Below, one piece after another: positions 1,909 through 64,000 of a stretch of DNA of 64,000 bases. The notes under the pieces are model-generated. The model saw only the letters and a program-made list of their open reading frames with translations. It searched no databases and was not told where the DNA came from. The stretch covers positions 17,940,210 to 18,004,209 of the forward strand of contig NC_134030.1 of assembly GCF_964204645.1 (NCBI RefSeq), written 5' to 3'. The position numbers were made by a program, and so were the translations under genes. Position 1 is the first letter of the stretch, and each line of letters begins with the position of its first letter. Source of the DNA: Tubulanus polymorphus (lineage: Eukaryota; Animalia; Nemertea).

Positions 1909-2528
1909 CTGATGTTATCCTTATTATAACCATTGATGAAACACTGTGAGCCCGTGTTGTGAAGATAGTATAAAATCCCTGTACTAGGAATAAAAACGTG
2001 TCCCACTGGTCACCTTCGTAAGTCTGAAGTAACACTACTTACATAATGCGGCCTTTGTTGCTCTATCATCTAAACATCGATGTCATTTATTTCAAATGGT
2101 TATAATATCGACGTATGGAATAGATTAGATAGTACATGAAACAGCTAAAATCTAAAAGGTGAAGAAAGTTCAAATTGATATATTACACCTCGGTTCAGAC
2201 AGTTGAATTTGAGCAACTTTCCTCACGTTGTACTACTGTGCCTGAATATCTAATCGGTTTCATTTGTTTTTCCCAGTATCCGTATAGGACCGGTCATTCG
2301 ACATCTGACTGTATATTTCCCCTGAAATCTAATTCAGTCACTTTATATAATAGCGAATTCGTCTCTAAGAAATGATGAACATAGCTTTCGCAAAACAAGA
2401 CTTTATTAGTATCTCTGTGAATTTCCGCAACATTTTGGTCAATAGTAATTAGAAAAGTAGGCTTTCAGGCCAGAGTACGAGAGTACTAAACACCACTCAT
2501 CACCACAAGTAATTTTTTTCCCTAATAA

Positions 2529-2703
2529 ATGGGAGACAGTGAGTTCCAACTAGAAAACAATAATGTCAATAAAAATCAATATTATTGTCCATATTGTAAA
2601 AAATACATCGATAAACCTTACATGGAAAATGTTAGAAATTATATTGATTCATTAGAAATAAAAGATACAATTGAAATTTTAGAAATATTACGTAGTAAAA
2701 TTG
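2529..2703 (+). pseudogene. 5' remnant of Maverick pPolB
   Basis: Matches 56618-56704 joined to 56996-57083; in-frame 291-bp deletion at ATAAA microhomology, then truncated. Confidence 0.9.
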
Positions 2704-2944
2704 TGACACACATAAACAGTGAGTGCGCGTAACAACAGCTGTGTGTGGATAGATCGATACAGTGAGTCTCTACTGAGAACGGTTATTAATGTGAGTGCTA
2801 TTACTGTAGTACAGTGATTGCGTGTCAACTGTACCCGGATAAATAGATGCTGTGAGGCTTGGGTGAGAACGGTTAATAGCGTGCTTGTTATATAGGGGGA
2901 AGTAATCCCCACTCATCACCACAAGTAATTTGTTTTCCTTATAA

Positions 2945-3271
2945 ATGGGAGATAGAAAAGCATTCTTAGCAACAATAAATAACAGAATAAAACCAGCAAA
3001 AAAACAATTTGAAATAAAAAAGTTAGTTGATGTTACAAAAGAAATTGAACATAAATTATTGAAATTAGAAAAGATAAAAACTAAATATGGAGAGAAAGTA
3101 TCAGCTAATTTAAGCTACTGTAATGTTAGTACATCGCGAGAATTTAAAGTGTTTTTACCCGATAAATGGGTTTCATTGAGTATGGAGGAATTGAAAGATT
3201 TAGTAGGATTTAAAATAATATATCATGGGAAAAATGAAGACGGTCATCATGATTTAGAAATTGTTGATTAA
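2945..3271 (+). CDS. Maverick hypothetical protein (108 aa)
   Basis: Intact ORF with element-like codon usage, preceded by the conserved ACTCATCACCACAAGTAA...TAAATG motif. Confidence 0.7.
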   Translation: MGDRKAFLATINNRIKPAKKQFEIKKLVDVTKEIEHKLLKLEKIKTKYGEKVSANLSYCNVSTSREFKVFLPDKWVSLSMEELKDLVGFKIIYHGKNEDGHHDLEIVD

Positions 3272-3430: not shown

Positions 3431-3935
3431 ATGGAACTAGAACAACTACAAACTATCAATATTACAAATAACACTGGTGTTATAAACATATACTACAAGA
3501 AGTGTTCTAAATGTGAATTAGATAAATTAGCTTTAATAGAATTTAGTAAGATTAACGCAATTATTCAACAAAGAAACACATTCAGAAACACTATCTAATT
3601 TGTTGGGTTGTTCAGATGAATTTCTCAAATCATGGATAATATATCAATTCGACAATAAAATGAATATAGATAATTATGGTGAATACTTTCATATTGATCA
3701 TGTGTTGCCGATTTCTAAATTTGATATGAATGATGAATATGATAAGAAGCTAATCTGGAACTGGAGAACTTTAAGACCTTTAGAAAAGAAAGAAAATATA
3801 ATTAAATCTAACAAACTAGATATGAAATTATATTTAGATCAACTGGAAAAAACAAAAAAATTTATTGAATTATGGAACAATAATCCAAATAATGAACGAT
3901 ACGTTGAGGAATTTGATATCAAGGATCCGAAATGA
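3431..3935 (+). pseudogene. HNH endonuclease of the giant-virus type (N-terminal CxxC; frameshifted or deleted near 3550)
   Basis: Start at TAAATG 3431 (KKCSKC); C-terminal LGCS..QF..NYGEYFHIDHVLPISKF..LRPLEKKENIIKSNK. Confidence 0.7.
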
Positions 3936-3972: not shown

Positions 3973-4344
3973 TTAATTATTTTTTGGTTTTTTTTCTAAA
4001 ATATTAATCCATTTTTTTATTATAAATTTTGGAATTTCAGAAGTACTTTCATTTTTGATAGCAGTTGGTTCAGAATTACTAATATCATGAATTTTATTTG
4101 ATTTCTTATACCAATTACACCCAATCAAAATGAATACAATTACAAATCCAACTGTAAAATATAAATATTTATCAAATATTCTACTATCAGAAGGAGTAGA
4201 AATAACAATATTTTCACCATTTTTATTACTTATTTTTTCTTTTACAGCTTTTTTATATTCTTGTGATTTAATTCCTAATTGTCGAGACCATTCAATTTGT
4301 TTCTGAGTTCTCGGTTTTTTCTTCACTTCTTTCACCTCGCTCAT
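3973..4344 (-). CDS. Maverick small basic membrane protein
   Basis: Lys-rich N-terminus and one hydrophobic segment (LYFTVGFVIVFILIG); TAAATG start. Confidence 0.65.
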   Translation of the reverse strand: MSEVKEVKKKPRTQKQIEWSRQLGIKSQEYKKAVKEKISNKNGENIVISTPSDSRIFDKYLYFTVGFVIVFILIGCNWYKKSNKIHDISNSEPTAIKNESTSEIPKFIIKKWINILEKKPKNN

Positions 4345-4882
4345 TTATTATAGAAATATTTTTACTTTCAATATTTGAAAATGTTATAACTCCAGTTGAT
4401 AATAATGTCATAAATCCACCTAATTGAAATGATAAATATCCAATCCATTTATTTAATTCAGTCATAACTAAATAATCATTTTTTAAATCAGAATATAATC
4501 TATTTTCATCTTCAATTGGTAGTATATAATTACATAATTTACTATAACCTTTTACTACATTTTCTGATATCGCGTCATTAATTCTAGCTGTTCTCGCGGA
4601 TTCATAAATCTTAAATAATCTAATAATTTCATCTGATTTCATTGTATCTAATTCATTATAAGTTAAATTTTTACTGACAAAATTTTTACATTTTCCAGAT
4701 GCTATTAATATTTCTAATTGATGTTTACAATAAAGATAATATTCATAATTATTATTTGTTGTAACATTATTTAAAGCACCATCATCTGGAGTTAATTTTG
4801 TTTCTGTTATTCCTAAATCATCTAAAGTTTTTTCAATTGGAACATCACCATTTTTAGATTTTATTTTCTTTTCACCTCCCAT
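4292..4882 (-). CDS. Maverick hypothetical protein (196 aa)
   Basis: Intact ORF with TAAATG start and a C-terminal hydrophobic stretch, downstream of the ATPase. Confidence 0.7.
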   Translation of the reverse strand: MGGEKKIKSKNGDVPIEKTLDDLGITETKLTPDDGALNNVTTNNNYEYYLYCKHQLEILIASGKCKNFVSKNLTYNELDTMKSDEIIRLFKIYESARTARINDAISENVVKGYSKLCNYILPIEDENRLYSDLKNDYLVMTELNKWIGYLSFQLGGFMTLLSTGVITFSNIESKNISIINERGERSEEKTENSETN

Positions 4883-5165: not shown

Positions 5166-5774
5166 TTAAATAAATTCATATTTAAATGGGTGTTGTAATC
5201 TAAATAGTAATTTTGATCTTTTAATATTTTTCAACTTATCCATATATTCATTATGTAAATCATGTGGAATAATATCATTTTCCTCAAGTGCATTTTTCAT
5301 CGATTTTCTATCTTTATTGTAGAATAAAACTAGAAATCTAATGTTTTCTCTAAAGTCTTTAACAATTGAATTATATTTTTGATTTAAAACCCAAGTTGTT
5401 ATCCCAAAATGTCTGCCAGAAAAAGCTAAATAACATAACTCACTTTCTCTAACTTTTGAATCATGTAGATTAGCACAATCATCTATAATGAATAATGTAT
5501 TTGATCCTTTATAAATATCAATTGCTATTTTTATACAATTATCTAAATTTTCTTTTACTGTTTTAGGATCTAATATAATAAATTTATTATTTCTAGTAAT
5601 ATTTCTATCATAAGTTTGATTAAATTCATATGTTGGACAAAATAATACTATATTATCAAAATAGTTTTCGTAAACAGTTTCTAATAAATTTAATATAAAA
5701 TAAGTTTTTCCACAATTTGTTACACCAGAAATTAACATATTATGAGGCTCAAATATGAATAATTCCTTATTCAT
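5166..5774 (-). CDS. A32/FtsK-HerA family genome-packaging ATPase
   Basis: Walker A GVTNCGKT, Walker B LFIIDD, SGRHFGIT..LNQ motif typical of Polinton and poxvirus A32 ATPases. Confidence 0.92.
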   Translation of the reverse strand: MNKELFIFEPHNMLISGVTNCGKTYFILNLLETVYENYFDNIVLFCPTYEFNQTYDRNITRNNKFIILDPKTVKENLDNCIKIAIDIYKGSNTLFIIDDCANLHDSKVRESELCYLAFSGRHFGITTWVLNQKYNSIVKDFRENIRFLVLFYNKDRKSMKNALEENDIIPHDLHNEYMDKLKNIKRSKLLFRLQHPFKYEFI

Positions 5775-6860
5775 TTATATATTTTTAATTTTACTTGATA
5801 ATATCCATTCATTGAATTTATCTGGCCATCCAACCCATTTTACTAAAGAATATTTTTTTCTTTTAACAGTTTTTGTTTTTAGTACTTTTTCAATTTTATA
5901 TTCTTGTTCTAGATTTTCAGTAGTTAAACTTAATTCTTCTTCGTAAAAGTAGCCATCAACTTCTTCACCATCTAAATCTTCTAATTTATAGACATATGGT
6001 TTTGTTGTTATTACCTTTTTTATTTTATATATTTCTCTAGTAAAATTTCGATCGTATCCTTTGTCAAATATCTTTTTATACTTAGAAATTCTAACATTTT
6101 GACCAACTTTAAATTTAGGTTCACCAAAATCATCTACAAGAAATGCTCCATATAAATTATTCCAAACAATTTCAGCATTTTCAGGTTTTCTAGCATCAAT
6201 AGGTTTCATTCCAATAGAAGAATGATAAGAATTATTATATCCTTCTATAAATTTTGGTAAAACATCAATCCATTTATAAGTATTATTTGCTGTGAAATAT
6301 TTTGATATTCTTGTTCTCAATGTTCTATTAAATCGTTCAACAACTGCTGCTTTTTTATTAGATTTTGTCGAAAAATATTTAATATTATGAAAATCCAAAA
6401 GTCCATGAACTAATGAATTATCAAATTCTTTTCCATCATCAAATTGTATTTTTTCTGGTTTTAGTTTACCACCTGAAAGAAATTTTCTTAAAACATGTGA
6501 TGTTTGTGCAGCATCTTTTCTATAAAGTGGGAAGCTCCATACATAACGACTAAAAATATCAATTATATTCAATATCCACCAATAATCATTATTATCTTTT
6601 TTAAGATTTTTCATATCAATTAAATCTCCTTGCCACTGTTGATCTACATAACTTACCATAGTTTTACGAGTTTTATATTTTCTAACAATTTTTTTATGTG
6701 TTGTATATGTTGGTTGTTCTAACATAAATTCATTTATATCTTTGTATTTAACTAAATTTTGTGGGATTATCTTATCTAATTTATCTTGTTTTACTTTACG
6801 CCATATATTTTTAGTAGAAGAATAAGCAACCGAACTCTCAGGGTTCTTCTTATATTGCCT
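5775..6860 (-). CDS. Maverick retroviral-like (rve) integrase with C-terminal chromodomain; native start lost
   Basis: DDE core WQGDLID / IQFDDGKEF / VVERFNRTL; chromodomain YKIEKVL..LVKWVGWPDKFNEWI. The frame stays open into host-like DNA up to 6992. Confidence 0.92.
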   Translation of the reverse strand, partial: RQYKKNPESSVAYSSTKNIWRKVKQDKLDKIIPQNLVKYKDINEFMLEQPTYTTHKKIVRKYKTRKTMVSYVDQQWQGDLIDMKNLKKDNNDYWWILNIIDIFSRYVWSFPLYRKDAAQTSHVLRKFLSGGKLKPEKIQFDDGKEFDNSLVHGLLDFHNIKYFSTKSNKKAAVVERFNRTLRTRISKYFTANNTYKWIDVLPKFIEGYNNSYHSSIGMKPIDARKPENAEIVWNNLYGAFLVDDFGEPKFKVGQNVRISKYKKIFDKGYDRNFTREIYKIKKVITTKPYVYKLEDLDGEEVDGYFYEEELSLTTENLEQEYKIEKVLKTKTVKRKKYSLVKWVGWPDKFNEWILSSKIKNI

Positions 6861-7230
6861 AAAATTAGTGTATAGCGAGTTATCATTCAACTTAAAATCT
6901 ATCTCTTGTACGTGCTGGTCTCGGAGTACACATTTTAATTTCTTTGAGAGTGTCATAGAGTTAACCAGACTCAAACCGGTACGTAGCGCCGCCTGGATAT
7001 TTTGCGTTTAACTAAAGCGTATTCTGTTTCGCACATAAACCATGATATACCGGGTACTGTGAATATAACAAAAAGATGAATAGTTTATCTGCAGTTGGGT
7101 TTCTAGTTCGTTTATTTTAGCCTCGAGGCACTCCTTTTCTTTCTGAATAAAAACGAAATGATTGTTTTTAGTTCCATGTAGTTCAAATATATCAGATAAT
7201 TAAGCCTACACATTCGGTTTAAATGCCTAC

Positions 7231-27633: not shown

Positions 27634-27882
27634 CTGGACATATTTTCACGTCGCAGTATTCCCAACGTAACGCGGGATCAGTGGTATAACACCAGGGTCC
27701 TCCTGTTGTATTGTCGGGGTTCCTACAATAATTCGCAGCCGTATTCCGGTCGGAGAGCATATTGTAACGGTCATGTTTGTGAGGTGATCGAGAATTCCAG
27801 GCTTGACAAGTTTTCCCGGATCGCACTTGATTCAAAGTTCCCCTGTATTCTCTTCCCATCGTGGTCATTTTGCATTCTTTCA
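27634..27882 (-). CDS. Kringle-domain exon (249 nt)
   Basis: Same kringle motifs and splice sites. Confidence 0.9.
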
Positions 27883-28958: not shown

Positions 28959-29211
28959 CTGGACATATCTTCACGTCGCAGTATTCCCAACGTAACGCGG
29001 GACCAGTGGTATAACACCAGGGTCCTCCTGTTGTATTGTCGGGGTTCCTACAATAGTTCGCAGCCGTATTCCGGTCGGAGAGCATATTGTAACGGTCATG
29101 TTTGTGAGGTGATCGAGAATTCCAGGCTTGACAAGTTTTCCCGGATCGCACTTGATTCAAAGTTCCCCTGACTGTATTCTCTTCCCATCGTGGTCATTTT
29201 GCATTCTTTAG
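28959..29211 (-). pseudogene. Kringle exon with a 4-bp frameshifting insertion (253 nt)
   Basis: Extra actg at ~29171 relative to the other copies. Confidence 0.85.
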
Positions 29212-37389: not shown

Positions 37390-38706
37390 TATGGTGGCTG
37401 ATTAGGGCCAAGTTAAAAAAAAAAAATTTCGTGCAATATACCATGCAAAAAATATATTGCTTCGTTTCTGCGTCCGTTTCTGCGCGGCGCAAAAACGAAA
37501 TTTACCGCGCTAAAACGCGCCAAAACGAGCGCAGAAACGAAATTTCGTTTTAGCGCCCGTTTTGGCGCGTTTCTGCGCGGTGATTTCTCGTTTTTGCGCC
37601 GCGCAAAAACGAAGTTCGTTTCTGCGTCCGTTTTTGCGCCGCGCAAAAACGAAATTTACCGCGCAGAAACGCGCCAAAACGAGCGCAGAAACGAACCTTC
37701 GTTTTAGCGCCCGTTTTGGCGCGTTTTAGCGCGGTGATTTCTCGTTTTTGCGCCCCGCAAAAACGAAGTTCGTTTCTGCGTCCGTTTTTGCGCCGCGCAA
37801 AAACGAAATTTACCGCGCAGAAACGCGCCAAAACGAGCGCAGAAACGAACGTTCGTTTTAGCGCCCGTTTTGGCGCGTTTTAGCGCGGTGATTTCTCGTT
37901 TTTGCGCCCCGCAAAAACGAACTTCGTTTCTGCGTCCGTTTTTGCGCCGCGCAAAAACGAAATTTACCGCGCAGAAACGCGCCAAAACGAGCGCAGAAAC
38001 GAACCTTCGTTTTAGCGCCCGTTTTGGCGCGTTTTAGCGCGGTGATTTCTCGTTTTTGCGCCGCGCAAAAACGAAGTTCGTTTCTGCGTCCGTTTTTGCG
38101 CCGCGCAAAAACGAAATTTACCGCGCAGAAACGCGCCAAAACGAGCGCAGAAACGAACCTTCGTTTTAGCGCCCGTTTTGGCGCGTTTTAGCGCGGTGAT
38201 TTCTCGTTTTTGCGCCCCGCAAAAACGAACTTCGTTTCTGCGTCCGTTTTTGCGGGGCGCAAAAACGAAATTTACCGCGCAGAAACGCGCCAAAACGAGC
38301 GCAGAAACGAACCTTCGTTTTAGCGCCCGTTTTGGCGCGTTTTAGCGCGGTGATTTCTCGTTTTTGCGCCCCGCAAAAACGAACTTCGTTTCTGCGTCCG
38401 TTTTTGCGGGGCGCAAAAACGAAATTTACCGCGCAGAAACGCGCCAAAACGAGCGCAGAAACGAACTTTCGTTTTAGCGCCCGTTTTGGCGCGTTTAAGC
38501 GCGGTGATTTCTCGTTTTTGCGCCCCGCAAAAACGAACTTCGTTTCTGCGTCCGTTTTTGCGGGGCGCAAAAACGAAATTTACCGCGCAGAAACGCGCCA
38601 AAACGAGCGCAGAAACGAACTTTCGTTTTAGCGCCCGTTTTGGCGCGTTTTAGCGCGGTGTTTTCTCGTTTTTGCGCCCCGCAAAAACGAACTTCGTTTC
38701 TGCGTC
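37390..38706 (+). repeat. Left TIR built from a 154-bp tandem array
   Basis: Period 154 bp; reverse complement of 50170-51484. Confidence 0.95.
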
Positions 38707-39848
38707 CATTTTTACCACGTGGTGCAGTCCCGAGCCGTGCATTCTAGGTCACAACGGCACCACGTTCGGGGCCCATCTCTAAAGTTCAACACTTCATCCT
38801 AAAACGTAGCCTATTTTAGAGCCCAAGGCACTAATTCACTTACTTGACTAACTAGCCCCCACTTCCCGAAATCGTGGAAAAACAAGAAAACTAAATTGAA
38901 AGTTTATTGACGGCGTGAAAAACATTGAATTGATCAGTAAGCCCATTAATGACGAAAAAATTATTAAATAGAAAATATATCATGAAATTTGTCTAATTAC
39001 AATAAACGCCATATAATTCAAAATTTTGTTAGGTCTATCTAAACGCCGATATTGATGCCCAGTGCACATCGAGTTATGAACTCCCTTGAGTTTTTATTGT
39101 CGAAGATCTAATTCATGGTTGCGTGCTTTTGGAAACAGAATGGTTCAACTCGATTTATTTTCAAATTAAACGATTAACTCTGGCATCATAGTGTCTGGGC
39201 CCTTCTATTCTCATCTAAAGAAGTGTCATTTTTCTGTAAAAGAAGGGTGCTCTTTAAAATCATCGGGAAGAGGGTTTCGAGGACTAGAAGATATTCGTTT
39301 TCTATAGAAGTTTTGAGACGACCCCTGTATCGATCGCCTTCTTCGCAATCATGGACGCTGTTGAGGTGAGCTTTTTCTCTTGTTATTTCATCATCATCAT
39401 CATCATCAGATACTTTATCAGTGACCCGATTTTATTGTGGTCATCTCAAAGAAACTACTCAATACTATACGTATATATTTTCATCGTCTGTTGGCCTACA
39501 TTGATTTGGGATATAATAGCACGTGCGTACCGGTATGTTAACCAGGTAGCCTACGTTGCTATGGATATCGCGCTGGAAACCCGAAAAGGGCGCTGCCGGT
39601 CAAAATTTTCCCGGGCCTCATAGAATTGGTAAAAATGAATAAATCAAAGGCCTATAAAGCAAAGACAATTGTAATTTTACAAAACTATCCGTGATAGTGA
39701 GGGCCCGGTCCATAATTTATATATCCGAAGTGTACGGTAATTCCCGATGGCGATATCGGAGTTACAATGCTCCGACGTGTGCTCCGACGGCTCCAAATCA
39801 CACTCCTTTTCTGTGTCAATTTCGGTTCCAGCAACACGTCAAGGTCGT

Positions 39849-49620: not shown

Positions 49621-50169
49621 ATTTCGAAATATCAGTATTGACAATCAGACAATTTCCATACCTGAGCTGACATCATCATCCTGTCCTTCTTCTTGTAGAA
49701 AACACGACATGATCTACCGCGCGAGGGGTTTATTTGTGGGATTTGGGAGGCCGTAGCGGCGTAGGAACCCTTATAGCGCGTCGTCAATATCACACGTATC
49801 AATGGGGCAGTCAGACGTTCAACTGAACTGACCTTATTGTATTGTATTAAAACTACACGCGCACGCCCTACTCTCTTCTCAACCGTGAATATAACCACTA
49901 TTCTTGACGCACTGGCTACCGCATCAAAACGTCAATTTTTACAAATATTTAATTTGAATTTGTTTACTTTTAACTGAAGGCAGTGCTACTGGCTTTCGTA
50001 AAAAATCAGAAAATCACCGATAAAGGAAGTTTTATTGCGTATAAACGTAATTCTGAAAATTAAATTAATTAGAAAATAATTGGTATAATAATACAACGTT
50101 TTAAGGCCGTAATTAGTATCACGAGATGAACCCTGGCGCCACCATCCGACCAAAATTACCGCGCATGAA

Positions 50170-51484
50170 CGAAGAAACGAAGTTCGTTTTTGCGCGGCGC
50201 AAAAACGAGAAATCACCGCGCTAAAACGCGCCAAAACGGGCGCTAAAACGAACGTTCGTTTCTGCGCTCGTTTTGGCGCGTTTCTGCGCGGTAAATTTCG
50301 TTTTTGCGCCCCGCAAAAACGGACGCAGAAACGAAGTTCGTTTTTGCGGGGCGCAAAAACGAGAAATCACCGCGCTAAAACGCGCCAAAACGGGCGCTAA
50401 AACGAAGGTTCGTTTCTGCGCTCGTTTTGGCGCGTTTCTGCGCGGTAAATTTCGTTTTGGCGCCCCGCAAAAACGGACGCAGAAACGAAGTTCGTTTTTG
50501 CGGGGCGCAAAAACGAGAAATCACCGCGCTAAAACGCGCCAAAACGGGCGCTAAAACGAACGTTCGTTTCTGCGCTCGTTTTGGCGCGTTTCTGCGCGGT
50601 AAATTTCGTTTTTGCGCCCCGCAAAAACGGACGCAGAAACGAAGTTCGTTTTTGCGGGGCGCAAAAACGAGAAATCACCGCGCTAAAACGCGCCAAAACG
50701 GGCGCTAAAACGAAGGTTCGTTTCTGCGCTCGTTTTGGCGCGTTTCTGCGCGGTAAATTTCGTTTTGGCGCCCCGCAAAAACGGACGCAGAAACGAAGTT
50801 CGTTTTTGCGGGGCGCAAAAACGAGAAATCACCGCGCTAAAACGCGCCAAAACGGGCGCTAAAACGAAGGTTCGTTTCTGCGCTCGTTTTGGCGCGTTTC
50901 TGCGCGGTAAATTTCGTTTTGGCGCCCCGCAAAAACGGACGCAGAAACGAAGTTCGTTTTTGCGGGGCGCAAAAACGAGAAATCACCGCGCTAAAACGCG
51001 CCAAAATGGGCGCTAAAACGAAGGTTCGTTTCTGCGCTCGTTTTGGCGCGTTTCTGCGCGGTAAATTTCGTTTTGGCGCCCCGCAAAAACGGACGCAGAA
51101 ACGAAGTTCGTTTTTGCGGGGCGCAAAAACGAGAAATCACCGCGCTAAAACGCGCCAAAACGGGCGCTAAAACGAAGGTTCGTTTCTGCGCTCGTTTTGG
51201 CGCGTTTCTGCGCGGTAAATTTCGTTTTTGCGCGGCGCAAAAACGGACGCAGAAACGAACTTCGTTTTTGCGCCGCGCAAAAACGAGAAATCACCGCGCA
51301 GAAACGCGCCAAAACGGGCGCTAAAACGAAATTTCGTTTCTGCGCTCGTTTTGGCGCGTTTTAGCGCGGTAAATTTCGTTTTTGCGCCGCGCAGAAACGG
51401 ACGCAGAAACGAAGCAATATATTTTTTGCATGGTATATTGCACGAAATTTTTTTTTTTTAACTTGGCCCTAATCAGCCACCATA
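50170..51484 (-). repeat. Right TIR built from a 154-bp tandem array
   Basis: Reverse complement of the left array. Confidence 0.95.
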
Positions 51485-54400
51485 GATTCGACTCTATTGC
51501 GGACAGCAGGTAAACATAATTACGTAACTATGTCTGCTGAAATGAGTGCAACCTTGACCTCGGCCACCAGGCTAATCGAGACCTGAATTAACACCACGCG
51601 TGTGACGATTTCCTCCCGATTCAAAATCATTTTGAATCGGGAGCCGAATCGGGAACCGGGAACCGGCTACTGGTTCCCGGTTCCCGGTTCAAAACCATTT
51701 TGAATCGGGAGCCGAACCGGGAACCGGGAGCCGGCTACTGGTTCAGCTACCGATTCAAAAACATTTTGAATCGGGAGCCGAATCGGGAACCGGGAACCGG
51801 GAGCCGGCTACTGGTTCAGCTCCCGATTCAAAATGTGAAGCTGGCTACTTATTCGATTCGACTCTATTGCGGACAGCAGGTAAACATAATTACGTAACTA
51901 TGTCTGCTGAAATGAGTGCAACCTGACCTCGGCCACCAGGCTAATAGAGACGTCTGAATTAACAGCACGCGTGTGACTTCAATATACACAGTTACTATGC
52001 AACTATATTCTATACTATAAGCGGCTAAGCCATAGCGTATTAACTTTGTAGCGCGTAATCTCCGTTCGTGTGGCTTCGATTACGCGTTGAGTGGTATGGA
52101 TTGAAAGAGGATGGTCTGATCTGTGTTAACGAATAGATTTCGTGCCGATACGATAAAGTTTAGGTAGACTTTTCTACCATTAAGTTTGGACTTTCCGCGT
52201 GACGTCACTGCGCGCGATGATGAAAACAAACATTTGCGCGATGTGAGCGTCAGCTGTTGCTCGTTGACTACAGAGACGCCGGTGACCTAATTTCATTTTG
52301 TCTGCCTACAGAGACGCGGTGACGTCAATTCTGGGGAATGTAATAGTGGAGAATACTGCGATGTGAGCATCATCGGTCTGATACGAGAAAGATGTACTGC
52401 ATGATTTGTTATATGTTACTAGTTCTTCTGCCCTGGGCCCGGTTTAGGTGATAATTCTAATGGAAAATGCTTAATTCGGGTTAGTTAATTGGTTTACCTT
52501 TGTCAGCGATATGAAGTTGGCTATTGAAATGTGTATTGAAATATTGTCAACATATTTGAAAATCATTTTAATCGGGAGCCGAATCGGGAACCGGGAACCG
52601 GTAGCCGGCTCCCGGTTCCCGGCTCCCAATTCAAAATGTGAAGCTGGCTAGTTATTCGCCAGGTGGCGCTGGTATATTCGATTCGACTCTATTGCGGACA
52701 GGTAAATGATATGATTGCGTAACTATGGTGTCTGCTCTCAAGTGCTAGCCGCAACCTTGACCACCAGTCGAGACGAGGCTAATCGAGACGTCTTAACACA
52801 TCGCGCAACCAGGTGTGCTGACCGCGAGCGTTGCCCGGAGCGTTGACATGCACTTTGACTCAGCAACTCATAATATCTTCTTTTATTCATTGAAGGTTTT
52901 GTGAAATAAGTGAAATCCTCGGAAATTTCTTTCCTTTTAAAAACTGCCAGCTACTGCTAATACGTACGTCATCATTCCGATATGAGTGTATGAAGCTACG
53001 AGATAGATTGTACGCGTGACTTATATGATATGTAGTTTTTCCCACAGCCAAATGGGTTAATGCCCTGGGCCCGGTTTAGGTGATAATTCGAATTGAAAGT
53101 GCTTTATTCTAGTTAGTGAATTCGATGATTAAATCTCTTTCACAAACGCTAATTAGGGAAAAGTAATTAATTGTAATTATCTCCGAAGTTAATTCCAAAT
53201 TAATTATTGCATTATTCCTATACGATGAAAAAACTATCATTAATAAAATGACCAGCCCCGTCGCTAATTATGCACACCGGAATTAGGGGGAGCTTAAATT
53301 CCCCTTCGTGAAACCCGAAACCCGACTCTGGTGAAAATGCGATCAACAAGATCAAAATTGTGACATCGTCAAATAAACAGGCGTTCGATCGAGACGTCTG
53401 CCCACCGTCTGAATCACCTACATATACATACCTATAGTCGCCTTTTTTGTTGAGTATTATTTTCCGTAAATATTATAACACACTAGAAAACGAAAACATG
53501 TGGATAATTTGGAAGAAAGGGTTGTAGTGTAGGTAAATATATTCATATGTATTCTAATCCAATGGTTACTGTGGTTGCATAGCAACTGTGAAACGTCTCG
53601 ATTAGCCTAGTGACCGAGGTCAGGTTAGCTATCGCTTATCTCAGGCGAGACATGGTTACGTAAATACGTCTGGACTGAGGAATATCGTATACTCGTGCCA
53701 TGTGAGAATAGAAAACCTGGAACGAATGAAATGTCAAAAGGTAATAGCAGAGCCGTCGGAAGGAATTTTTAAGTGGCGAGGCTTATTTCTGAAGGGGGTT
53801 TAGGGGCCCTCCCCTAGAAAAATTTTGAAAATTCAATCGCCGGAGATGCGTTTTGGGGCCATTTCACGGTCTCACTCACAGAAGCACGAGAAGCGGTGAG
53901 CCAACCACTTAGTACAGAGAACGACGAGCTGCTACGCGGTTCAGCGTGCTTTTGAAAAATATTTTGTTAAGCAAAAAAGTGGGGCGGCTTTGGCCGCCCC
54001 TGCCGCCCCTGCCGCCCCTGTTCCGACGGCCATGAATAGAGATGTTACGAGAGGTCATCGGTTGGTTTTTCGATGTATTTGATGATGCGCTGTAACTTAA
54101 ACCATAGCGCCGAATCGATTTAGGGTGTTTTAGTAAAAAAAGTCGAATCGGAACAGTTTTCCAACTTATTACTACCAACGGAATTCCTTTGTAAAAGTAC
54201 ATAATTTCAAAATTTTTGATATATCTCGAATATCGTTGATGAGTCATATATAATGAAGGTCGAAGGTTTAGAGGGTCGATTTATTGGAATTTTAAAGGCA
54301 TAGTTATATAATTTCTGGAATAGAAAAAAAAAAAGTTTGGAACTTAATGATAGTGAAGTTTCAGCATGTCTCCTTTACAATGAAGGATTCAATCCGCGAT

Positions 54401-56553
54401 GTTGATTCTACTTGCTTAAAGGGCACATGTACAATTAATAGAATATCATGTCATACTTTTTCTATGAAGTAATATGTTCACAAGTTATAATATGCTACTG
54501 ATTATCATTTCAGTCATTTCCTGAAATACACTTATAAATCGGCAGTTTGAGCAGGTGCTCACTGTATCTAGATGTGTGCAGGTACGTGTTCCTGACGTCA
54601 TCTCTATTGAAAGCTTACTGTTTACTCAGTTTCTATTCATTTAAAAGGGGTATTTAAGATTTTTTAAATTAATGATTTCTAAAGTATTGTTGGTGCCATC
54701 GTATATGATATGATAAACATATATGTTAGTGGGTGCATCATATAGCCGTGATATATAAGAGGGAACAAATTATGACTATCAATTGGATACGTATATATCA
54801 ATTGTATACGCTAGAGAGCGCATACGTGCTTAGGTTTATCACCGACATACCGTGAAAAAAGCAACAGTGAGTTTGGTGAACTGTGTAAACAAAGTGAAGA
54901 GTAAATGAACGACGCATTTATAAGAAATCATTCCTTTGCGAAATAAGCATTGCGTTTATCAATCACGAAAAGTACAATTCATTGGCCATGTGGCCAAAAG
55001 AAAAAACGTTTGAGACGCTGAAGCGAGTTTCGGTGGGCTGCAATCAAACCCACGCAAGTATGGCGCCAGAGAGGCGATCCGATGGTTATTGGACAGTGTC
55101 TGTCATCGAGAGGATTTCCGAGGTTGCGCCAGACGTGATGACACGATCAACTGGGACTATCGTAGCTACGTCACCAAGCAATGATGCTGACCTACTATTT
55201 TGATATCGGAAAAGCTGACCGTGTGAAGAAATTGATATCTGTTATCACTCATCACCGCTCAATGAGATACGCGTGAGAATCCCACCTGTTGCTGACGCAC
55301 TGTTGCCGGGGCACCGCTCCAGGGGAAATTAGTACGTATGATCACAAATGTGAAAATGCAGTGTTAAGTATTATAGCAATACAACACGACAAGTTTATCG
55401 CTTTTCTAGCAATCAGTAAATGCTCCCTATTGTGCGTACTGATCACGCCGCTTAAAGCGTATGTATGTTTCAATGCGCGAAATTAAATAGTTCCAATTGT
55501 CACCTAATTTTACTTTGCTTTCCGGAAGAAATTCAGATGTGTCGTTACTTTTACGCAAAGAGTGTAAACATGTAACAATTAATTATTGGAAATAATACGA
55601 TAGTTTTGTGCTTGAAGATAAGATACTGCCCGCGCGCATCAATCGACCGCGCTTTACTACAAGTATTCAAATAGGCCTGCAACTGCTGTATCGAATCGAT
55701 GATGAGTGTTGCATTGTATTTATCTCTCTCTAAATCGCAAATTTTTCTCTGGCTTTGCGCATAGTTTATTTCAAGTAGTGAGAAAAAAATGGTACGGTTA
55801 GCTTTGGTGCTACTGATGTCGATTTCTATTCTTTTATCTCATCATTCCAGAGAGCAGTGGAAATATGTAGAGATTTAGGGGGGATGAGGGTTATTGAGGC
55901 TTGGGTCACATAATTTTTCTGAGATCGGTAGATCACATTTTGCGGCCGTAAAAGCGCTGCGAACCGTAAAAGCGTTCATTGTTTGTGTTTTCCCGATCTC
56001 CGTTTACCTTACGTTGTACATGTTTTATATATAAGTGTAACACGGAAAATCGCAATGCCGGGTATTGATGTGCAGTCGCGGCCATGGCCATGTTTCAGAA
56101 GGTACCGGTATAATACCACGGAATATAAATGTTCTAAACTCGAAAGGGGGGACACCTTTAGATGTATATGAATCCAATGGGTAATATGTAAATAGTATGT
56201 TCGGTAAATAATGTTTGTTATGTTTTAAGATACGTTTTCATTTACCTCCTAAATGAATGCTGTTTTTCCTCCTCCATATACCATAGAAGTGATTGGAGTG
56301 TAATGAATATTCGTATTCGTATTAAAAGTATTGAGAGCAATCTGATCGAATAGTATTAAAACATGTGTGTAACTGAAGCTTTTATATATATATATATACG
56401 TAAAAACAAGAATTTATTTATTGAATCTAAAAAATTTTTATTATCCGTTCACCACGTTTGAGTGTGGTTATCGTTCTATCCTGAAGTGAAGCTACAGCTG
56501 ACAGTAATTAGAATATCAGGCTTTCATACCAGAGTACGAGAGTACTAAACACC

Positions 56554-56620
56554 ACTCATCACCACAAGTAATTTTTTTTTCCTACTCATCACCACAAGTA
56601 ATTTTTTTCCCTAATAAATG
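56554..56620 (+). promoter_or_regulatory. Conserved Maverick promoter-like motif ACTCATCACCACAAGTAA-T-rich-TAAATG (partly tandem-duplicated here); also at 2495-2531, 2911-2947, 3396-3433 (+) and 62978-63013 (-)
   Basis: Near-identical ~37-bp sequence ending at the ATG of several unrelated ORFs. Confidence 0.8.
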
Positions 56621-59600
56621 GGAGAGAGTGAGTTCCAACTAGAAAACAATAATGTCAATAAAAATCAATATTATTGTCAATATTGTAAAAAATACATCGA
56701 TAAATCTAATAAAACTAAACATGAAAAATCTTCAAATCATATACAAAATTTAATAGATTTTGAAACTCCAGAAAATTCCAATGAAAGAAAAGAACGATTA
56801 GAAAATATGAATGTGGATGAAATAAAATGTGAAGTTTGTAATGAATTTATAGTAAAAAGGAATTATAATAGACATCTCGAATCACAAAAACATTATAAAA
56901 ATTTAAATAAAAATGTTTTAGGATTAGAATATTTTGATAATAAACCTCAACAAGTAAAAGAATCAACTTCAAAAACAAAATCCATTTCAAATAAACCTTA
57001 CATGGAAAATGTTAGAAATTATATTGATTCACTAGAAATAAAAGATACAATTGAAATCTTAGAAACATTACATAGTAAAATTGGTCCTGCAGCAATTATA
57101 TTTAGATTTTTTAAAGGTACAACAATAGAAGATTATAGTAAATTTAATGAAATAATAGAAAAAATACTAGATTTGATAACAGATGTTGAATATCCAAAAA
57201 TTAGTATCTCTGGGAAAGTAAGTTTTATTAAGTCAGAAGAAAAAATGGATTATAATATTCAAACACACTCTGAAGAAATAATTTCAAAAACACAAATAAA
57301 AGAGAAGTTAGAAAAAATATTAAATGAATTTAAACGTCATATTGAAGAAAGATATTTTGAGGTTTCTGGTTTAACATTGAATGAAATTATATATTTAGAT
57401 TTAAATGTTTATAATACAAAAAGAAATAAAACATCAAAAAGTAATAAAATGTTTAAAAATGATTCAAACTTTACAACAGAAAAAGATATGAAAGCATCAA
57501 GTTATATTAAATTACCATTTAAAACTAATGCAGTAATTAATATACAGAATGATGATAATAAATGTTTTCTGTGGGCGATTATAAGTTGTTTACACCCAAC
57601 AGAAGATATGACGCATAGTTTTAGAATAACAAATTACCGGAAATATGAAACATTATATAAAATTGATCAATATCCAGTAACTATAAAAATGATTCCTAAA
57701 ATAGAAAAAGTTAATAATTTAAAAATAAATGTATTCGAATTAATGCAATTACCAAAGACAAAAGGTGAAAATATTAAAGATTATACATTGGAAGCTTTAT
57801 ATTTAACAGAATATTATGATGATGAAAATGCTATAGATTTGTTATATTACAAAAAAGATGAAAATGAACATTATATGTGGTTAAAACAAATTGATTTATT
57901 CTTTAGAACAGAAAGTGATCATCATAATAAAATTTATCTATGTAGAAAATGTTTATCTAAATTTATGATTGAGAATACATTATTAAAACATAAAGAATTA
58001 TGTGATAATAAAGATTTTTGTAAATTAATAATGCCAACAGAAAAAGATTATAAATTGAAATTTACTAATCATAAATTTAAAAATATTGTTCCATTTGTAA
58101 TTTATGGGGATTTTGAATCGTTGAATAAAGAATTAACTGATCAAGATAGAAAAGAAATATATAACAAAAAGCAATTATTAAAATCAATGGATAAAGGAAG
58201 TGAATTAAATGAAGACATAATACAAGACCCACCAATTATAAATACAATTAAAAAAGTTCATCAAAGAGCTGCTGCTTATGGAATTTATATAAAATCAAAT
58301 TATCCCGAATTATATGAAAGTCAATATATTTCTTTTAGAGGTGAAAATGTAGTTAATGATTTTTGTGATAAAATTATTGAATTAGAAAGTGATTTTGCAA
58401 AATTATTAAACAAAAATAAAAGAATAGTTATGACAAAAGAAGATGAAATTGATTTTAATTATGCAACTCATTGTTGTTATTGTGAAAAACGTTTTTATTC
58501 ATTTGATAAAAGAGTTAGAGATCATGATCATTTAAATTCAAAATATCGTGGAGCTGCTCATGAAGATTGCAATTTACAAGCTAAAAAAGTAAATTTCGTA
58601 CCAATATTATTTCATAATTTATCAGGCTATGATACCCATCTATTTATAAAACAATTATCGGGAAAATTGGGCGCAATTAATCAAGAAATAGAAGAATATA
58701 ATGCTATGAATGAAGCAAATGTAAGAAAATATGATTTTAAACTATTAGCTAAAACATCTGAAAATTATATTTCATTTCAATTTGGTTGCATTAGATTTTT
58801 AGATTCTTATAGATTTCTAGCAAGTTCATTAGATAATTTATCAAAATCATTTTATAATGATTTCAAAATAATGATTTTATTATAACTCGATATTATTATC
58901 CAAATGAACAAGATTTTAAATTATTGAGATATAAAGGCGCAATTCCTTATTCATTTTATAAAACACATGATGATTTTAATATAACAGAATTATGAAGATC
59001 AATTTTATGATAAATTAAAAGAGGAGTATGTGAAAGACGAAGTTTTTGATAGAACATTAAATATTTGGAACCATTTTAAGATGAAAAATCATGGCGAATT
59101 AGTTGATTTATATTTAAAATCAGATGTTATGATATTGGCTGACATATTTGAAAAGTTTAGAGAAGTTAATCTAAACCATTTTAATGTTGATCCTTGTTAT
59201 TGCTACTCTAGTCCTGGTTTAACCTGGCAATGTGGTTTAAAATATACAAATGTAGAATTAGATTTATTAAAAGAACCAGATATGGTTTTATTATTTGAAA
59301 AATCAATTAGAGGTGGAATTAGTGGTGTTATGGGAGATAGGTATTTTAAAGCAAATGATGAATATAAATTATTATATATTGACGCCAATAATTTATATGG
59401 TTGGGCAATGATGCAACCTCAACCATATAAAAATTTTATATTAACAGAAGTTGAAAATGATGATAAAACTGATTGGGAAAGCGCAATTGCGAGTTTAAAA
59501 GACGAAGCACCAATTGGTTATTTCTTTGTAGTTGATTTAGAATATCCTGAAAATATAAAGTTTAAAACAAGAAACTTACCTTATTGCCCAGAACATTTAA

Positions 59601-61694
59601 CTGTAGATGATAGTTATTTAAGTGAATACCAGAAGAAAATAAAACCGAAAGATCATGTTTTTACAGAAAAATTAATACTTACTCAAAATAATAAATACAA
59701 TTATATTGTTCATTATAGAATGTTAAAATTTTATCTAAAACAAGGAATGAAATTAAAGAAAGTACATAGATATATTGAATTTAATCAATCAAAGTGGTTA
59801 GAAAAATATATAGATTTCAATACTCAACAGAGAACAATATCAAAAAATGATTTTGAAAAAGATTACTTTAAACTGATGAATAATGCGTTCTATGGCAAGA
59901 CTTGTGAAAACATAAGAAATAGAAATGATATTGAGTTAGTTAGTAATGGTAAAAGATTAAGGCATTTACAATCGTATCCGAAATTTATAGGCAACAGAAT
60001 ATTTGATGAAAATTTAGCAGCAGTTAAAATGAGGAGAACTTCAATGAAGTTCAATAAACCTATATTTATTGGTGCATCAGTTCTAGAAATTTCAAAATTA
60101 TTAATGTATCAATTTTACTATAACATATTACAACCCCATTTTGGAGAAAAAAATATAGAAATATTATATTTTGATTCTGTAACAGCTGACACCCCAATAT
60201 TATTAAAATGTAATAATAAAATATTGGTAAGAAGAATTTCAGAAATAATTCCAAAACAAAATGAATGTTATATTTCATATGGTGAAAAAGAATTAATACA
60301 AATAAATGGATTAATGGATGTTTGGACGAGAAATGGATGGAAAAAATTAAATAAAATTATCAGACATAAAACAAATAAGAAAATCTATAGAGTTAGAACT
60401 AAATTAGGATTTGTAGATGTTACAGAAGATCATAGTTTAATTAAACAAAATGGTGATGAAATAAAACCAACTGATATAAAAATTGGAGATGAATTATTAC
60501 ATAAAAGATTTTACCCAAGAATGAATCATATGTCATTTGATGATAATTGATAATATTTATAATATAGAACCCGAAACATTGGAAGAAAAAGAATATTTTA
60601 TCAAAGGATTTTTCATGGGTGATGGTTCAGCAGGTGTGTATAATTATGTTAGTGGAACTAAATATTGTTGGTATTTATGCAATCAAGACTTAAAATTATT
60701 AGAAAGAATTAAGAAATTCTGTGAAGAAGTTTATCCAAATAAAACTTTTAAAATCATGGATGTTATGAAATCATCAGCAGTTTATAGAATACATGTGAAT
60801 AATCCTAAAGATTTTGCTATAAAATATAATAACGAATTCTATATTCATGCAATAGTGAAAAGTAATACTTCAACTAAAGAAAAGATAGTTCCAGATTATG
60901 TATTAAATGCAAAAAATAATTTAAAAAAATGGTTCTTCATTGGATTCTACGCAGCCGATGGTACTAAAAGTTTCAAAAACCGCAAAACAATATCTTTAGC
61001 TCAAAAAGGAAAAGTTGCTATATCAGGATTAAATATATTATGCAATTCATTAGGTTTTAATATGAATATTGGATTGATTAAATCTAAACCAAATTGCTTT
61101 AATATAAGCCACACAGAAAATGAGATAACTGAAGAAGTTAAAGATTTATTTGAAATATATAACCCAACAGATTATGTTTATGATTTATCAACTGAAGATG
61201 GTACATTTAACTGTGGATTTCCATTAATAGCCAAAAATACTGACGCCTACATACTAAAAATAAAAACTGATAACATAACAAAAGACTTAAAAACATTAAA
61301 ACATCATTTTGATTTTAGTAATTACCCTAAAGATCATGAATTGTTTAGTAATGATAATAAAAAGATTCCTGGTAAGTTTAAAGATGAATTAGGAGGTGAT
61401 GAAATGATTGAATTTGTTGGGATAAGAAGTAAAATGTATAGTTACAGAACAAAAGATCATGAAGCTAAAAAGTTAAAAGGAATAACAAAACATGTGGTTG
61501 ATAAACATATAGAATTTCAAGATTATATAAAGTGTTTATATAAATCAATTGTAATGAAACACAAAATGAATTGTTTAAGATCAGAAGATCATGAGATGTA
61601 CATTAATGAAGTTGAAAAAACTAGTTTAAATCCATTTGATGATAAAAGGCATATTTTAGATGATGGTATAAAAACATTACCTTATGGTTATTAA
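56618..61694 (+). pseudogene. polB: Protein-primed family B DNA polymerase with intein; disrupted at ~58860-59030 and ~60545
   Basis: N-terminal Zn fingers, ExoI YGDFES, endonuclease-VII-like insert RDHDH..YRGAAH..CNL, ExoII FHNLSGYD, FLDSYRF, motif A YIDANNLYG, motif B KLMNNAFYGK, split motif C YFD^TD, C-terminal DDKR. Confidence 0.95.
60176..61238 (+). mobile_element. Intein (~355 aa) with LAGLIDADG homing endonuclease in PolB motif C
   Basis: Block A SVTADTPILL, block B VDVTEDHSL, LAGLIDADG helices FIKGFFMGDG and FFIGFYAADG, block F YVYDLSTE, block G LIAKN|T. Confidence 0.93.
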
Positions 61695-62980
61695 AACATA
61701 AAATCAATATCATCAAATTCGAAATCATTATTGTCTTCTTCATTTTCATGTTCTTCTTCCATTCCATTTTTCTCATTTAAATAAAGTTCTATCTTGTTCC
61801 ACATTTCATCTCGCTCTCTTTGTTTCTTTTTGTTTGTTAATTCATCAAATGGAATTATAATATCTAGGTTTAAATAATTTACAATCTTATTCAAAAAGAA
61901 TTCATAATTTATTGAATCTGTTATTCTATTTTCCAAATGATACATTAATATTTGTTTAAATATTTTTTTTATATTTTCCATATCTTCTTCTGTTAATTTA
62001 GGTTTTTCATAATAATCGTTAAATAATAAATATAAATACATTTTCTTTTGTTTTGTGTTAAATGTTGGTGGAATAATTGTTTTTATAATATCTTTTTTAG
62101 TTATTTCACCATTTTTATTTTCTATTATTTTCATTTTTTCAAGCCATTGCATATATTCTGGTGTATGATCTTCTATAGAAAATATTTTAAAAATTTCATC
62201 AAGATAATTTAATTTTGGATCTATAAGAAAATTTCTAATTTTTTCTTCATCCCATAAATTCTTTTGCCATCCACAATCAACACAAAATAACACAGTACCT
62301 TCTTGTCTTAAGGTCGCATAAATACATTGTGGGCATTTTTGTTTATAATTTATTGGTAATAGATTTTCATTAAGCTCTTGGTATTTTCTTACGTTTTCTT
62401 TATGTTTTACTGTTCTATTATGTAGATTTGAATTACTTGTTGTAATAATCAATTTACAATATTTACAATAATATGTTTTTCTTGTTAATTCATTATATTG
62501 TTTTTCTAACTTTTCAACTGTTTCTTCATTATCTGGTAACGTTTTCTCATATTTTATTTTTTCTAATAAATTATTTTTTCTTTCATTGAATTCAGTTTCA
62601 AATTTATTAGAAATTTTATCTATGTGTGCTTTACTAAATTGATGATTCTCCCAATCTTCTATATTGTCAGGGCTATATTTTACTTGACAAGGCTCACAGA
62701 AATTATTCTTTACATTATTCTTGTTATAAAATAAAAAAGGTCTTTTCCAAATAACTTCAGGTTCAACTTCAGCAGAATTATTATCAACATTAGCTGTTGC
62801 GCCATTAATTCTACACTTCTCTGAATGTTTTTTAACATAATTTCTTGAGAATAATTGATTACATTTTGGGCAGTTTATTTTAGGGGGTTTATAATTTTCA
62901 TCATGTTTTTTCATATGTCGAGCCTTATTACTTTTTCTTAGAAGTTCACCACAAATTTCACATGCTATCTTCTCGTCCAT
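61691..62980 (-). CDS. Multi-zinc-finger protein with a C-terminal poxvirus/NCLDV VLTF3 (A2L)-like late transcription factor domain
   Basis: C2H2-type fingers, zinc ribbon CPQC..EGTVLFCVDCG, then PKLTEEDMENIKKIF..SINYEFFLNKIVNYL..KKQRERDEMWNKI, resembling the VLTF3 C-terminus. Confidence 0.65.
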   Translation of the reverse strand: MDEKIACEICGELLRKSNKARHMKKHDENYKPPKINCPKCNQLFSRNYVKKHSEKCRINGATANVDNNSAEVEPEVIWKRPFLFYNKNNVKNNFCEPCQVKYSPDNIEDWENHQFSKAHIDKISNKFETEFNERKNNLLEKIKYEKTLPDNEETVEKLEKQYNELTRKTYYCKYCKLIITTSNSNLHNRTVKHKENVRKYQELNENLLPINYKQKCPQCIYATLRQEGTVLFCVDCGWQKNLWDEEKIRNFLIDPKLNYLDEIFKIFSIEDHTPEYMQWLEKMKIIENKNGEITKKDIIKTIIPPTFNTKQKKMYLYLLFNDYYEKPKLTEEDMENIKKIFKQILMYHLENRITDSINYEFFLNKIVNYLNLDIIIPFDELTNKKKQRERDEMWNKIELYLNEKNGMEEEHENEEDNNDFEFDDIDFMF

Positions 62981-63036
62981 TTATTAAGGAAAAAAATTAC
63001 TTGTGGTGATGAGGTAATTTTTTTATGTTATAAATA

Positions 63037-63834
63037 ATGGTAGAATTAAAAGAATACAGAATATTTGTTGATTCTAGAAAACTTATAAATTATAAATCTC
63101 ATAATTTATTAGTACAATTAGATAGAGAATTTAAGAATTGTGTAGATTTAAAATTAGTAAATATAAGTTTATGTAATTCTTTTTATAATATATCGGATAA
63201 AACTGATGAACATAGAAGCCTTCTTATTTTTGATAAACTTGAAAAAAAATGGATTCAACTTATGCTTACACCAGGATTATATAATTTAGAAACATTAGCG
63301 CAAGAAATTAATAGAAAAGCTCGGATTAGATTAGGTAATGGTAATTCCAAATTTAATATTAAATTCATAAAAAGTGAGAGCTCTAATAAAATTAAAATAA
63401 AGCTTGATGATGAACTTATTAAACTTGATAAATCTGATCCATTGATGACAAGAAGACATACTTACACGGTAAAAAAACCTATAGCTAAACTATTAGGAAT
63501 TACTCCAAATCAATTTGGTGGAAACAAACACGGTAACTCAAATATAATACCTTTTACACACTTTTATATTTATTGCAATTTAATCGATCCTACAAAAACA
63601 TTCGAAGCAACTAAAGATACAACATGTAATTCTGGTTTACTAAACATTTTACCATTGAAGAATGTTAAACAATTTGGAACGCAAATAAATTATAATTTAA
63701 CAGAATGTGATTTTAAACCTTGCATTCCTAAATTTAATAATTTTAGATTAGAAATTAGAAATCATAATGGATACTTAATTGATTTAAATAACTTTCCTGT
63801 GATATATGAATTAGTTATAAGATGTAAAGAGTAA
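63037..63834 (+). CDS. Minor capsid (penton-like, single jelly-roll) protein
   Basis: IFVDSR, NSFYNI, PGLYNL, KLLG, FYIYCNLI, LEIRNHNGYLIDLN pattern of Polinton and virophage pentons. Confidence 0.75.
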   Translation: MVELKEYRIFVDSRKLINYKSHNLLVQLDREFKNCVDLKLVNISLCNSFYNISDKTDEHRSLLIFDKLEKKWIQLMLTPGLYNLETLAQEINRKARIRLGNGNSKFNIKFIKSESSNKIKIKLDDELIKLDKSDPLMTRRHTYTVKKPIAKLLGITPNQFGGNKHGNSNIIPFTHFYIYCNLIDPTKTFEATKDTTCNSGLLNILPLKNVKQFGTQINYNLTECDFKPCIPKFNNFRLEIRNHNGYLIDLNNFPVIYELVIRCKE

Positions 63835-63850
63835 TTTTTCACCTATAAAA

Positions 63851-64000
63851 ATGAATATAACTGTTGGACCGAGTATATGTTTTGGGTTTGATTTTAAACG
63901 TGAGAAAGAAATGAAATTTAACATTAATGATGTAATAACACATATCAAAAATGTTGTATTTTCTAATGAAACAACATTTGAGTATGAAACAACAATAGAT
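63851..64000 (+). CDS. 5' end of the next Maverick ORF (truncated by the window)
   Basis: Open frame MNITVGPSICFG... to the window end, preceded by GAGTAA-N16-ATG. Confidence 0.6.
   Translation, partial: MNITVGPSICFGFDFKREKEMKFNINDVITHIKNVVFSNETTFEYETTID

Follow-up and report, generated by a model that had tools for sequence, protein, structure and literature searches.

Mavericks or Polintons (Polintoviricetes; adintoviruses of Starrett et al., PMC8502044) encode a pPolB polymerase, an rve integrase, an A32 ATPase and a penton, begin with an AG terminus and occur in many copies in an animal. An element sharing these features, the penton only as a probable one, was found in 64,000 nucleotides of DNA from the nemertean Tubulanus polymorphus (RefSeq assembly GCF_964204645.1, contig NC_134030.1, positions 17,940,210 to 18,004,209 of the forward strand), hereafter the window. 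Unlike Mavericks and Polintons generally, it has an intein in pPolB, strict TAAATG starts and a GC content of 24%. It is one defective member of a Maverick/Polinton family with multiple copies. We lean towards the reading that the genes of this family were transcribed by an RNA polymerase supplied by a co-infecting virus, either poxvirus-like or another large cytoplasmic DNA virus, which would make the element a probable animal counterpart of the virophages. For autonomy versus helper dependence in animal Polintons, the family offers a sharp test in the 5' ends of transcripts at a 6-bp motif.

VLTF3 appears in a MELD virus legend (PMC8502044) and in stony coral polintoviruses, where it is attributed to Krupovic and Koonin 2016 and read as giant-virus gene exchange (PMC11131425). 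The coral polintoviruses resemble the present element in carrying VLTF3 in an animal-integrated polintovirus, but the protein described here is fused to zinc fingers and is missed by Pfam. The words promoter, intein and helper are absent from the main text of that paper. Polinton-like viruses (PLVs) were described from entomopoxvirus occlusion bodies and proposed as poxvirus hyperparasites (Barth et al. 2024, PMC11296320), in a paper that also cites Polinton mobilization in baculovirus-infected cells and whose main text does not contain VLTF3, promoter, intein or TAAAT. These are Polinton-type elements of animals too; they were found physically with their helper, whereas no helper was seen for the element described here. 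VLTF3 in animal polintoviruses and poxvirus-associated PLVs are therefore already published. For TAAAT promoters in animal Polintons, no report was found in the literature searched, in which subscription papers are thinly covered and supplements may list such cases. Mavirus is likewise an integrating pPolB/rve element; it differs in its virophage capsid proteins, its protist host and a dependence shown by experiment, where that of the present element is a proposal. It reportedly shares promoters with CroV. Activation of the integrating element by a giant virus has been suggested (bioRxiv 10.1101/068312).

The helper-polymerase reading rests mainly on the promoters. TAAATG was present at 8 of 10 intact gene starts, compared with 20 of 483 other ATGs of the element (p ~2e-9, or 2e-8 with pPolB counted once), a count that excludes the integrase start and starts created by frame breaks. 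An A/T box abutted the ATG at all 10 intact starts. The same comparison led us to reject AT-rich chance as the origin of the motif, and stop-start coupling was rejected because a long upstream open reading frame (ORF) ended there in just one of the eight cases. Across the whole window TAAATG was not enriched (83 observed, 83.9 expected). A 14-bp box, CTCATCACCACAAGTAAT, occurred six times, against 0.08 by chance; five occurrences were located 16-17 bp ahead of a TAAATG, and the sixth was a tandem duplicate. The CTCATCACCACAAG box preceded four different genes, i.e. pPolB (in both copies of the element), VLTF3, HNH and ORF108. It was lacking ahead of the genes for the ATPase, the 196-aa, 123-aa and penton-like proteins and ahead of the last ORF, yet the ATPase, 196-aa and 123-aa genes started at TAAATG. 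The proposal of the first-pass annotation that poxvirus-like TAAATG promoters occur at fixed spacing was thus borne out. Vaccinia intermediate/late promoters and yeast virus-like elements have a TAAAT(G) initiator over the start codon and upstream T residues, as observed here (PMC11980589, PMC6211774). The initiator of the yeast elements is TAAAN, and they encode their own RNA polymerase (PMC6211774), none of which was seen in the window; the 14-bp box is absent from both consensuses. A T ten bases ahead of TAAAT was found in five of eight starts and was counted in favor of a helper polymerase because the vaccinia late consensus, which includes the TAAAT initiator, has the same upstream T (PMC11980589).

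As controls, starts were counted in 80 related pPolB loci (TAAATG at 16 of 182) and in 80 intein-bearing viral contigs (55 of 677); starts in these comparison loci were first-ATG calls, errors included. Among the related loci only L071 reached one-half (4 of 8), and the commonest triplet at -3 to -1 was AAA (27 of 182). T at -3 is a poor Kozak context. A sister-clade locus, L002, ended in the same T-run-CC-TAAATAAATG (one start). These observations bear on the idea that the element is an ordinary Maverick in which intein, HNH and VLTF3 are relics or selfish passengers of an ancient giant-virus contact and the promoter is a duplicated AT-rich leader unconnected with any viral polymerase. The near-identical box copies are what duplication would produce, intein and HNH are homing elements, and frame shifts break pPolB, intein and HNH in these copies. 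Duplication of a single leader is nevertheless insufficient for the three box-less genes that start at TAAATG, VLTF3 keeps an open frame of 429 codons and is related to P0001 and P0002, and L002 retains the same leader. We regard this explanation as improbable. The promoter pattern is real, is seldom met with in relatives and supports a poxvirus-type initiator.

The intein begins with Ser after YFD, ends with Asn before TD, is followed by a nucleophile at +1 and comprises N- and C-terminal splicing blocks and a central endonuclease. Its score for TIGR01445 was 34.5 bits (cut-off 24.5) and LAGLIDADG_3 matched with E 4e-7, confirming the pol-c intein recognized in the first pass. Lys occupies the penultimate position, which it also does in 31 of 72 viral alleles. 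A frame break lies near 60540; it is not fixed in the family because same-species reads differ at that place. Read depth fell over the intein; no intein-skipping joint was present among the read joints listed. Twelve proteins matched the intein: five pPolBs at 46-60%, one partial and six delta-like polymerases at 27-39%. The viral-contig set comprised the best 80 of 427 related stretches (569 scanned), mostly GVMAG records with 31-42% identity. Of these best 80, 72 carried the intein at the same YGD/TDS site, and 76 had a delta-like extein and none a pPolB. Inteins in DNA polymerases of Nucleocytoviricota share the YxD/TD site, the Ser start, the Asn end and LAGLIDADG (PMC5784728, PMC10710043), whereas the present one resides in a protein-primed Polinton polymerase in an animal nucleus and belongs to a separate clade. 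Six Polinton inteins formed this clade, with 46-61% identity as against 31-42% for the viral contigs; its branch support was 97/95 with 13 rows, and the Shimodaira-Hasegawa-like approximate likelihood ratio test (SH-aLRT) gave 99 with 78 rows, both for the C-terminal piece in unrooted trees. The clade contained only Polintons, and therefore the intein does not point to a recent helper. Recent gain from a giant virus was rejected because the six branch apart from the viral-contig inteins.

One member of the intein clade, P0009, is carried by a pPolB of another type without extein similarity to the pPolB of the window, which suggests transfer between Polinton groups. In the polymerase tree, for which a length filter had removed L003 and further short matches, the five intein-bearing pPolBs of the window's type fell in a clade with the intein-free L001, L002 and P0030 (support 100). 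Empty alleles exist: P0007 has the intein (1537 aa), whereas P0030 (1191 aa) and P0029 do not. This patchiness within one pPolB clade also speaks for selfish passengers, as does the absence of inteins from 80 metagenome pPolB loci (0 of 80), 74 of which showed an uninterrupted motif. As judged from these comparisons, the intein is mobile within one Polinton clade, has kin in giant viruses and is not the mark of a present helper; it is inherited and exchanged among Polintons and would mark old contact, not present dependence. A separate observation concerns a 136-member cluster (P0007, P0020-P0033; contigs up to 1 Mb) with intein-plus pPolBs of 1537 aa and intein-minus pPolBs of ~1191 aa, in which the frames are intact and in which the homing of an intein in a Polinton could readily be studied.

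No earlier report of a Polinton polymerase with a true intein was found in the same literature, thin as it is in subscription papers; supplements may list such genes. Endonuclease inserts in pPolBs have been suggested to derive from intein invasions (PMC11161782), and a nematode Polinton paper reports HNH and VSR inserts without using the word intein. A survey of eukaryotic inteins covers fungi, protists, algal plastids and giant viruses and, in the part available, no animals (PMC5784728), and viral-type polymerase inteins are known on nuclear scaffolds of algae and a labyrinthulid (PMC10710043). With both full and empty alleles, a homing intein in the polymerase of a Polinton would add animal nuclear DNA to the range of true inteins, and it would show gene traffic between giant viruses and Polintons.

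The VLTF3-like protein consists of U1-type zinc fingers followed by a zinc ribbon and a helical VLTF3 (poxvirus A2-like) domain. It was missed by Pfam (PF04947, no match at E up to 1), PHROGs and NCBIfam. An unfiltered phmmer search with the C-terminal 220 residues gave four matches in 1.8 billion sequences. P0004 was the weakest of them (E 5.6e-5) and is clearly a Pox_VLTF3 protein (Pfam E 1e-24) with an A2L zinc ribbon; the other three had no VLTF3 match in Pfam. The ESM Atlas score was 0.94, and 27 of 30 matches lay in VLTF3 clusters, one cluster being of Preplasmiviricota. For a five-sequence model with a predicted local distance difference test (pLDDT) value of 74, the top Foldseek matches were cowpox VLTF3 (E 2e-6) and a homolog from an entomopoxvirus (E 2e-5), a result that is not fully independent as P0004 was among the five rows. 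The model had no match at E 0.001 in the PDB fold search, and a word-index protein search with the VLTF3 half yielded 0 of 1584 candidates. Thus the first-pass assignment failed in Pfam and was upheld by phmmer, the ESM Atlas and Foldseek, and the call of a VLTF3 homolog, as predicted by fold and homology, stands.

HNH had only two matches in the protein database. They group with Nucleocytoviricota HNH clusters (0.98, with P0038 as the query), and P0038, of giant-virus type, was the better of the two (62.8 bits). The HNH piece also matched 52 phage records at <60% identity (best 71 bits, a score from a different program than the 62.8 bits of P0038), and HNH as a giant-virus-specific trait was rejected on this ground. 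It is compatible with a giant-virus origin and not diagnostic of one; the gene call of the first pass stood, without being specific to nucleocytoplasmic large DNA viruses. The same annotation had presented intein, VLTF3, HNH and promoters as independent signatures of such viruses. They are less independent than that, as the intein moves among Polintons, HNH is shared with phages and VLTF3 is known in animal polintoviruses. Its virophage-like reading retained the gene calls and the promoter pattern, but not the four traits as independent proofs of helper dependence. Of all traits, the promoters alone bear on current biology, and they fit a poxvirus-type polymerase better than Pol II.

Several results weigh against a helper polymerase, among them the separate intein clade and the phage matches of HNH. 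No helper virus or transcript was seen in the window, which is genomic DNA. Related Polintons commonly have A/T-rich leaders that end in TATA or AAAATG, with at least 84% AT ahead of 17 of 29 full-length pPolB starts. The poxvirus consensus offers no counterpart to the 14-bp box, pPolB and VLTF3 have a late-type initiator though needed early, and AATAAA occurred 49 times (47.5 expected) with no group depleted and the groups not separated. Finally, core genes of coral polintoviruses are expressed in colony transcriptomes (PMC11131425). Counted in favor were the tight spacing (divergent starts 56 bp apart, the pPolB ATG 115 nt from the terminus), the VLTF3 matches, the intein site common to 72 of the best 80 viral contigs and, as a precedent, the PLVs of entomopoxvirus occlusion bodies (PMC11296320). 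TTTTTNT was observed 6 times against 12.1 expected (z -2.4), which is suggestive at most.

Expression of polintoviruses with VLTF3 in ordinary coral transcriptomes would agree with an autonomous nuclear Polinton, read by host Pol II with its own zinc-finger-VLTF3 protein as an adaptor or early-to-late switch and without any helper. At 18-22% to its poxvirus homologs, the VLTF3 found here is divergent; it is also fused to zinc fingers, and the box is element-specific, with 0 matches in viral contigs. To our knowledge, chloroviruses and prasinoviruses encode VLTF3 and no RNA polymerase. VLTF3 is also present in small Mriyaviruses and PLVs (10.64898/2026.06.19.733378). In 8 of 10 genes, however, ATG strictly follows TAA, with T at -3, which an autonomous Polinton leaves unaccounted for, and VLTF3 sits behind the very box that it must activate. 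Furthermore, in the related loci L026, L033 and L040 a TATA-like box is located ~35-45 nt upstream and the leader is richer in GC, an arrangement expected for Pol II that this element does not have. We consider autonomy the main rival explanation, though a rather unlikely one.

Two leader types were observed among the related pPolB loci. An A/T-run leader with TATA or AAAATG abutting the start was present in L007, L009, L018, L024, L032 and L034, and L026, L033, L040 and L074 combined a GC-richer leader with a TATA-like box located 35-45 nt upstream. The two types form clusters in the polymerase tree, and they may distinguish Polintons of a helper type from those of a Pol II type.

If a helper polymerase transcribes the element, transcription would begin within the AAA of TAAAT and its products would acquire a 5' poly(A) leader, like those of vaccinia intermediate/late genes. 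The CTCATCACCACAAG box would define one gene class (pPolB, VLTF3, HNH and ORF108) and the bare T-run/TATAAAT a second, morphogenetic one. The zinc-finger-VLTF3 protein would steer the helper polymerase onto the promoters of the element, and the intein would have entered the Polinton lineage long ago from a giant-virus-type polymerase and now move among Polinton copies. Redirection of the polymerase by VLTF3 and activation on infection are what we infer. If helper dependence is true, endogenous elements of the mavirus kind are present in animals, and an unseen virus of poxvirus type is predicted by the promoters. More tentatively, and with some doubt, a whole clade of animal-integrated Polintons might be endogenous virophages of an undescribed invertebrate poxvirus-like virus, using TAAAT and zinc-finger-VLTF3 redirection and having brought a mobile giant-virus intein into the nuclear genomes of animals, from which the surveys consulted record no true inteins.

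A kringle exon, rhodopsin-type receptors and 39% GC mark the window as animal DNA. Copy B (56503-64000) is the left part of a Maverick/Polinton and copy A (2444-~6990) a second, internally deleted copy. Their GC content is 0.24 and 0.26, respectively, compared with 0.39 for the host DNA at 7000-56400, and the element ORFs are contiguous in both, in agreement with the intronless, AT-rich DNA described in the first pass. The copies share an identical AG terminus and 249 of 262 aligned bases. The host segment ahead of copy A is repeated at 7312-9918 and runs on there without the element; because this paralogous site (9918/9919) is empty, the terminus of copy A is fixed exactly. Same-species reads mapped on 50001-64000 in large numbers at 90-99% likeness. 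The family is multi-copy because read contigs pile up over the element (up to 26 per site) versus the flank (mostly 1-2, up to 12), a mapping that yields no copy number. Features are collected in Table 1.

Table 1. Positions in the window of the element's termini, genes and intergenic features
Feature	Position	Strand	Remarks
Candidate 6-bp target-site duplication gctgac	56497..56502	.	Abuts terminus; right end beyond window
Left terminus, copy B	56503..56617	+	Begins AG; two CTCATCACCACAAG boxes, T-run, TAAAT
pPolB pseudogene	56618..61694	+	Frame pieces 56618-58885, 58985-60550, 60525-61694
Intein with LAGLIDADG homing endonuclease	60176..61238	+	YxD/TD site, polymerase motif C
VLTF3-like 429-aa protein	61691..62980	-	Frame open
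Divergent intergenic region, 56 bp	62981..63036	.	Box + T-run + TAAATG to VLTF3; T-run + TATAAATAATG to penton-like gene
Candidate minor capsid (penton)	63037..63834	+	hhalign 39%, E 3e-4, vs three locus proteins picked as penton candidates
ORF running past window edge	63851..64000	+	Starts at T-run + TATAAAAATG; no family call
Left terminus and deleted pPolB stub, copy A	2444..2732	+	
108-aa orphan ORF (ORF108)	2945..3271	+	Behind box promoter; no Pfam match at cut-off
HNH-type nuclease gene, frame broken	3431..3935	+	Behind box promoter
123-aa ORF, hydrophobic stretch	3973..4344	-	TAAATG start
196-aa conserved Polinton protein	4292..4882	-	Homolog after ATPase in locus L012, E 2.5e-13
A32-like packaging ATPase	5166..5774	-	Pfam Pox_A32 E 3e-13, above cut-off
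rve integrase, chromodomain-like tail	5775..6956	-	Pfam: rve over cut-off (E 1e-8), Chromo under it (E 2e-4)

Copy B harbors pPolB in three frame pieces, the 429-aa minus-strand ORF, a 265-aa ORF and the start of a further ORF. Copy A harbors the pPolB stub, the 108-aa orphan, the broken HNH, the 123-aa and 196-aa ORFs, the A32 ATPase and the rve integrase. The integrase, ATPase and HNH are found in copy A only, and the intein and VLTF3 in copy B only; given the common terminus and promoter box, the two gene sets are taken to represent one element. The canonical Maverick core of the first-pass annotation was confirmed for pPolB, and for the integrase and ATPase with the restriction that both lie in copy A, outside the stretch 56503-64000 to which it referred; its penton was a weak call. 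The pPolB has N-terminal zinc fingers and an endonuclease-VII-like insert, is related to Pfam DNA_pol_B_2 proteins such as P0005 and is probably of the Beta/group 1 polymerase type, solely on the basis of a missing PF03175 match. The product of the 265-aa ORF is probably, though weakly, a minor capsid (penton) protein; its single-sequence fold reached a pLDDT of 31, and a PDB sequence search gave no match. Scans of viral contigs produced no usable relative of pPolB, the ATPase or VLTF3, and searches for penton, HNH, ORF108 and the VLTF3 profile found nothing in 80 pPolB loci (most short) or 80 viral contigs. Homologs of the ATPase and the 196-aa protein are adjacent in locus L012, the usual Polinton layout. 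The integrase start and upstream region were probably lost at the junction with host DNA. No major capsid, protease or right end was present within the window.

Further observations were made on the element and its surroundings. The CpG observed/expected ratio was 1.2 in the host DNA at 7000-56400 and 0.51-0.62 in the two element copies. In place of most of the pPolB of copy A stands ~200 bp of GC-richer DNA, unique within the window (2705-2905). A 48-bp repeat lies 3' of both ORF108 (3305-3352) and the HNH gene (3916-3963), possibly signaling the 3' end or left over from insertion of an HNH cassette, and an array of short CAACTAGAAT-type direct and inverted repeats separates the ATPase and 196-aa genes (4914-5166). 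At 56401-56438, ~70 bp from the end of the element, many reads switch strand or run off, and this site is probably a small palindromic repeat family. The host segmental duplication 1-2443/7312-9918 is ~98% alike, with the element in one unit and the other empty. An Rfam search gave 0 matches. Elsewhere in the host DNA, a long-exon cluster of rhodopsin-type receptor genes with two methyltransferase ORFs (FkbM, Methyltransf_23) occupies 10105-22265, and four ~1.3 kb tandem units, the first with the kringle-domain exon, occupy 24700-29750. A 154-bp satellite forms two inverted arrays (37390-38709 and 50165-51484) that are 98% complementary, each beside an array of 66-73-bp repeats.

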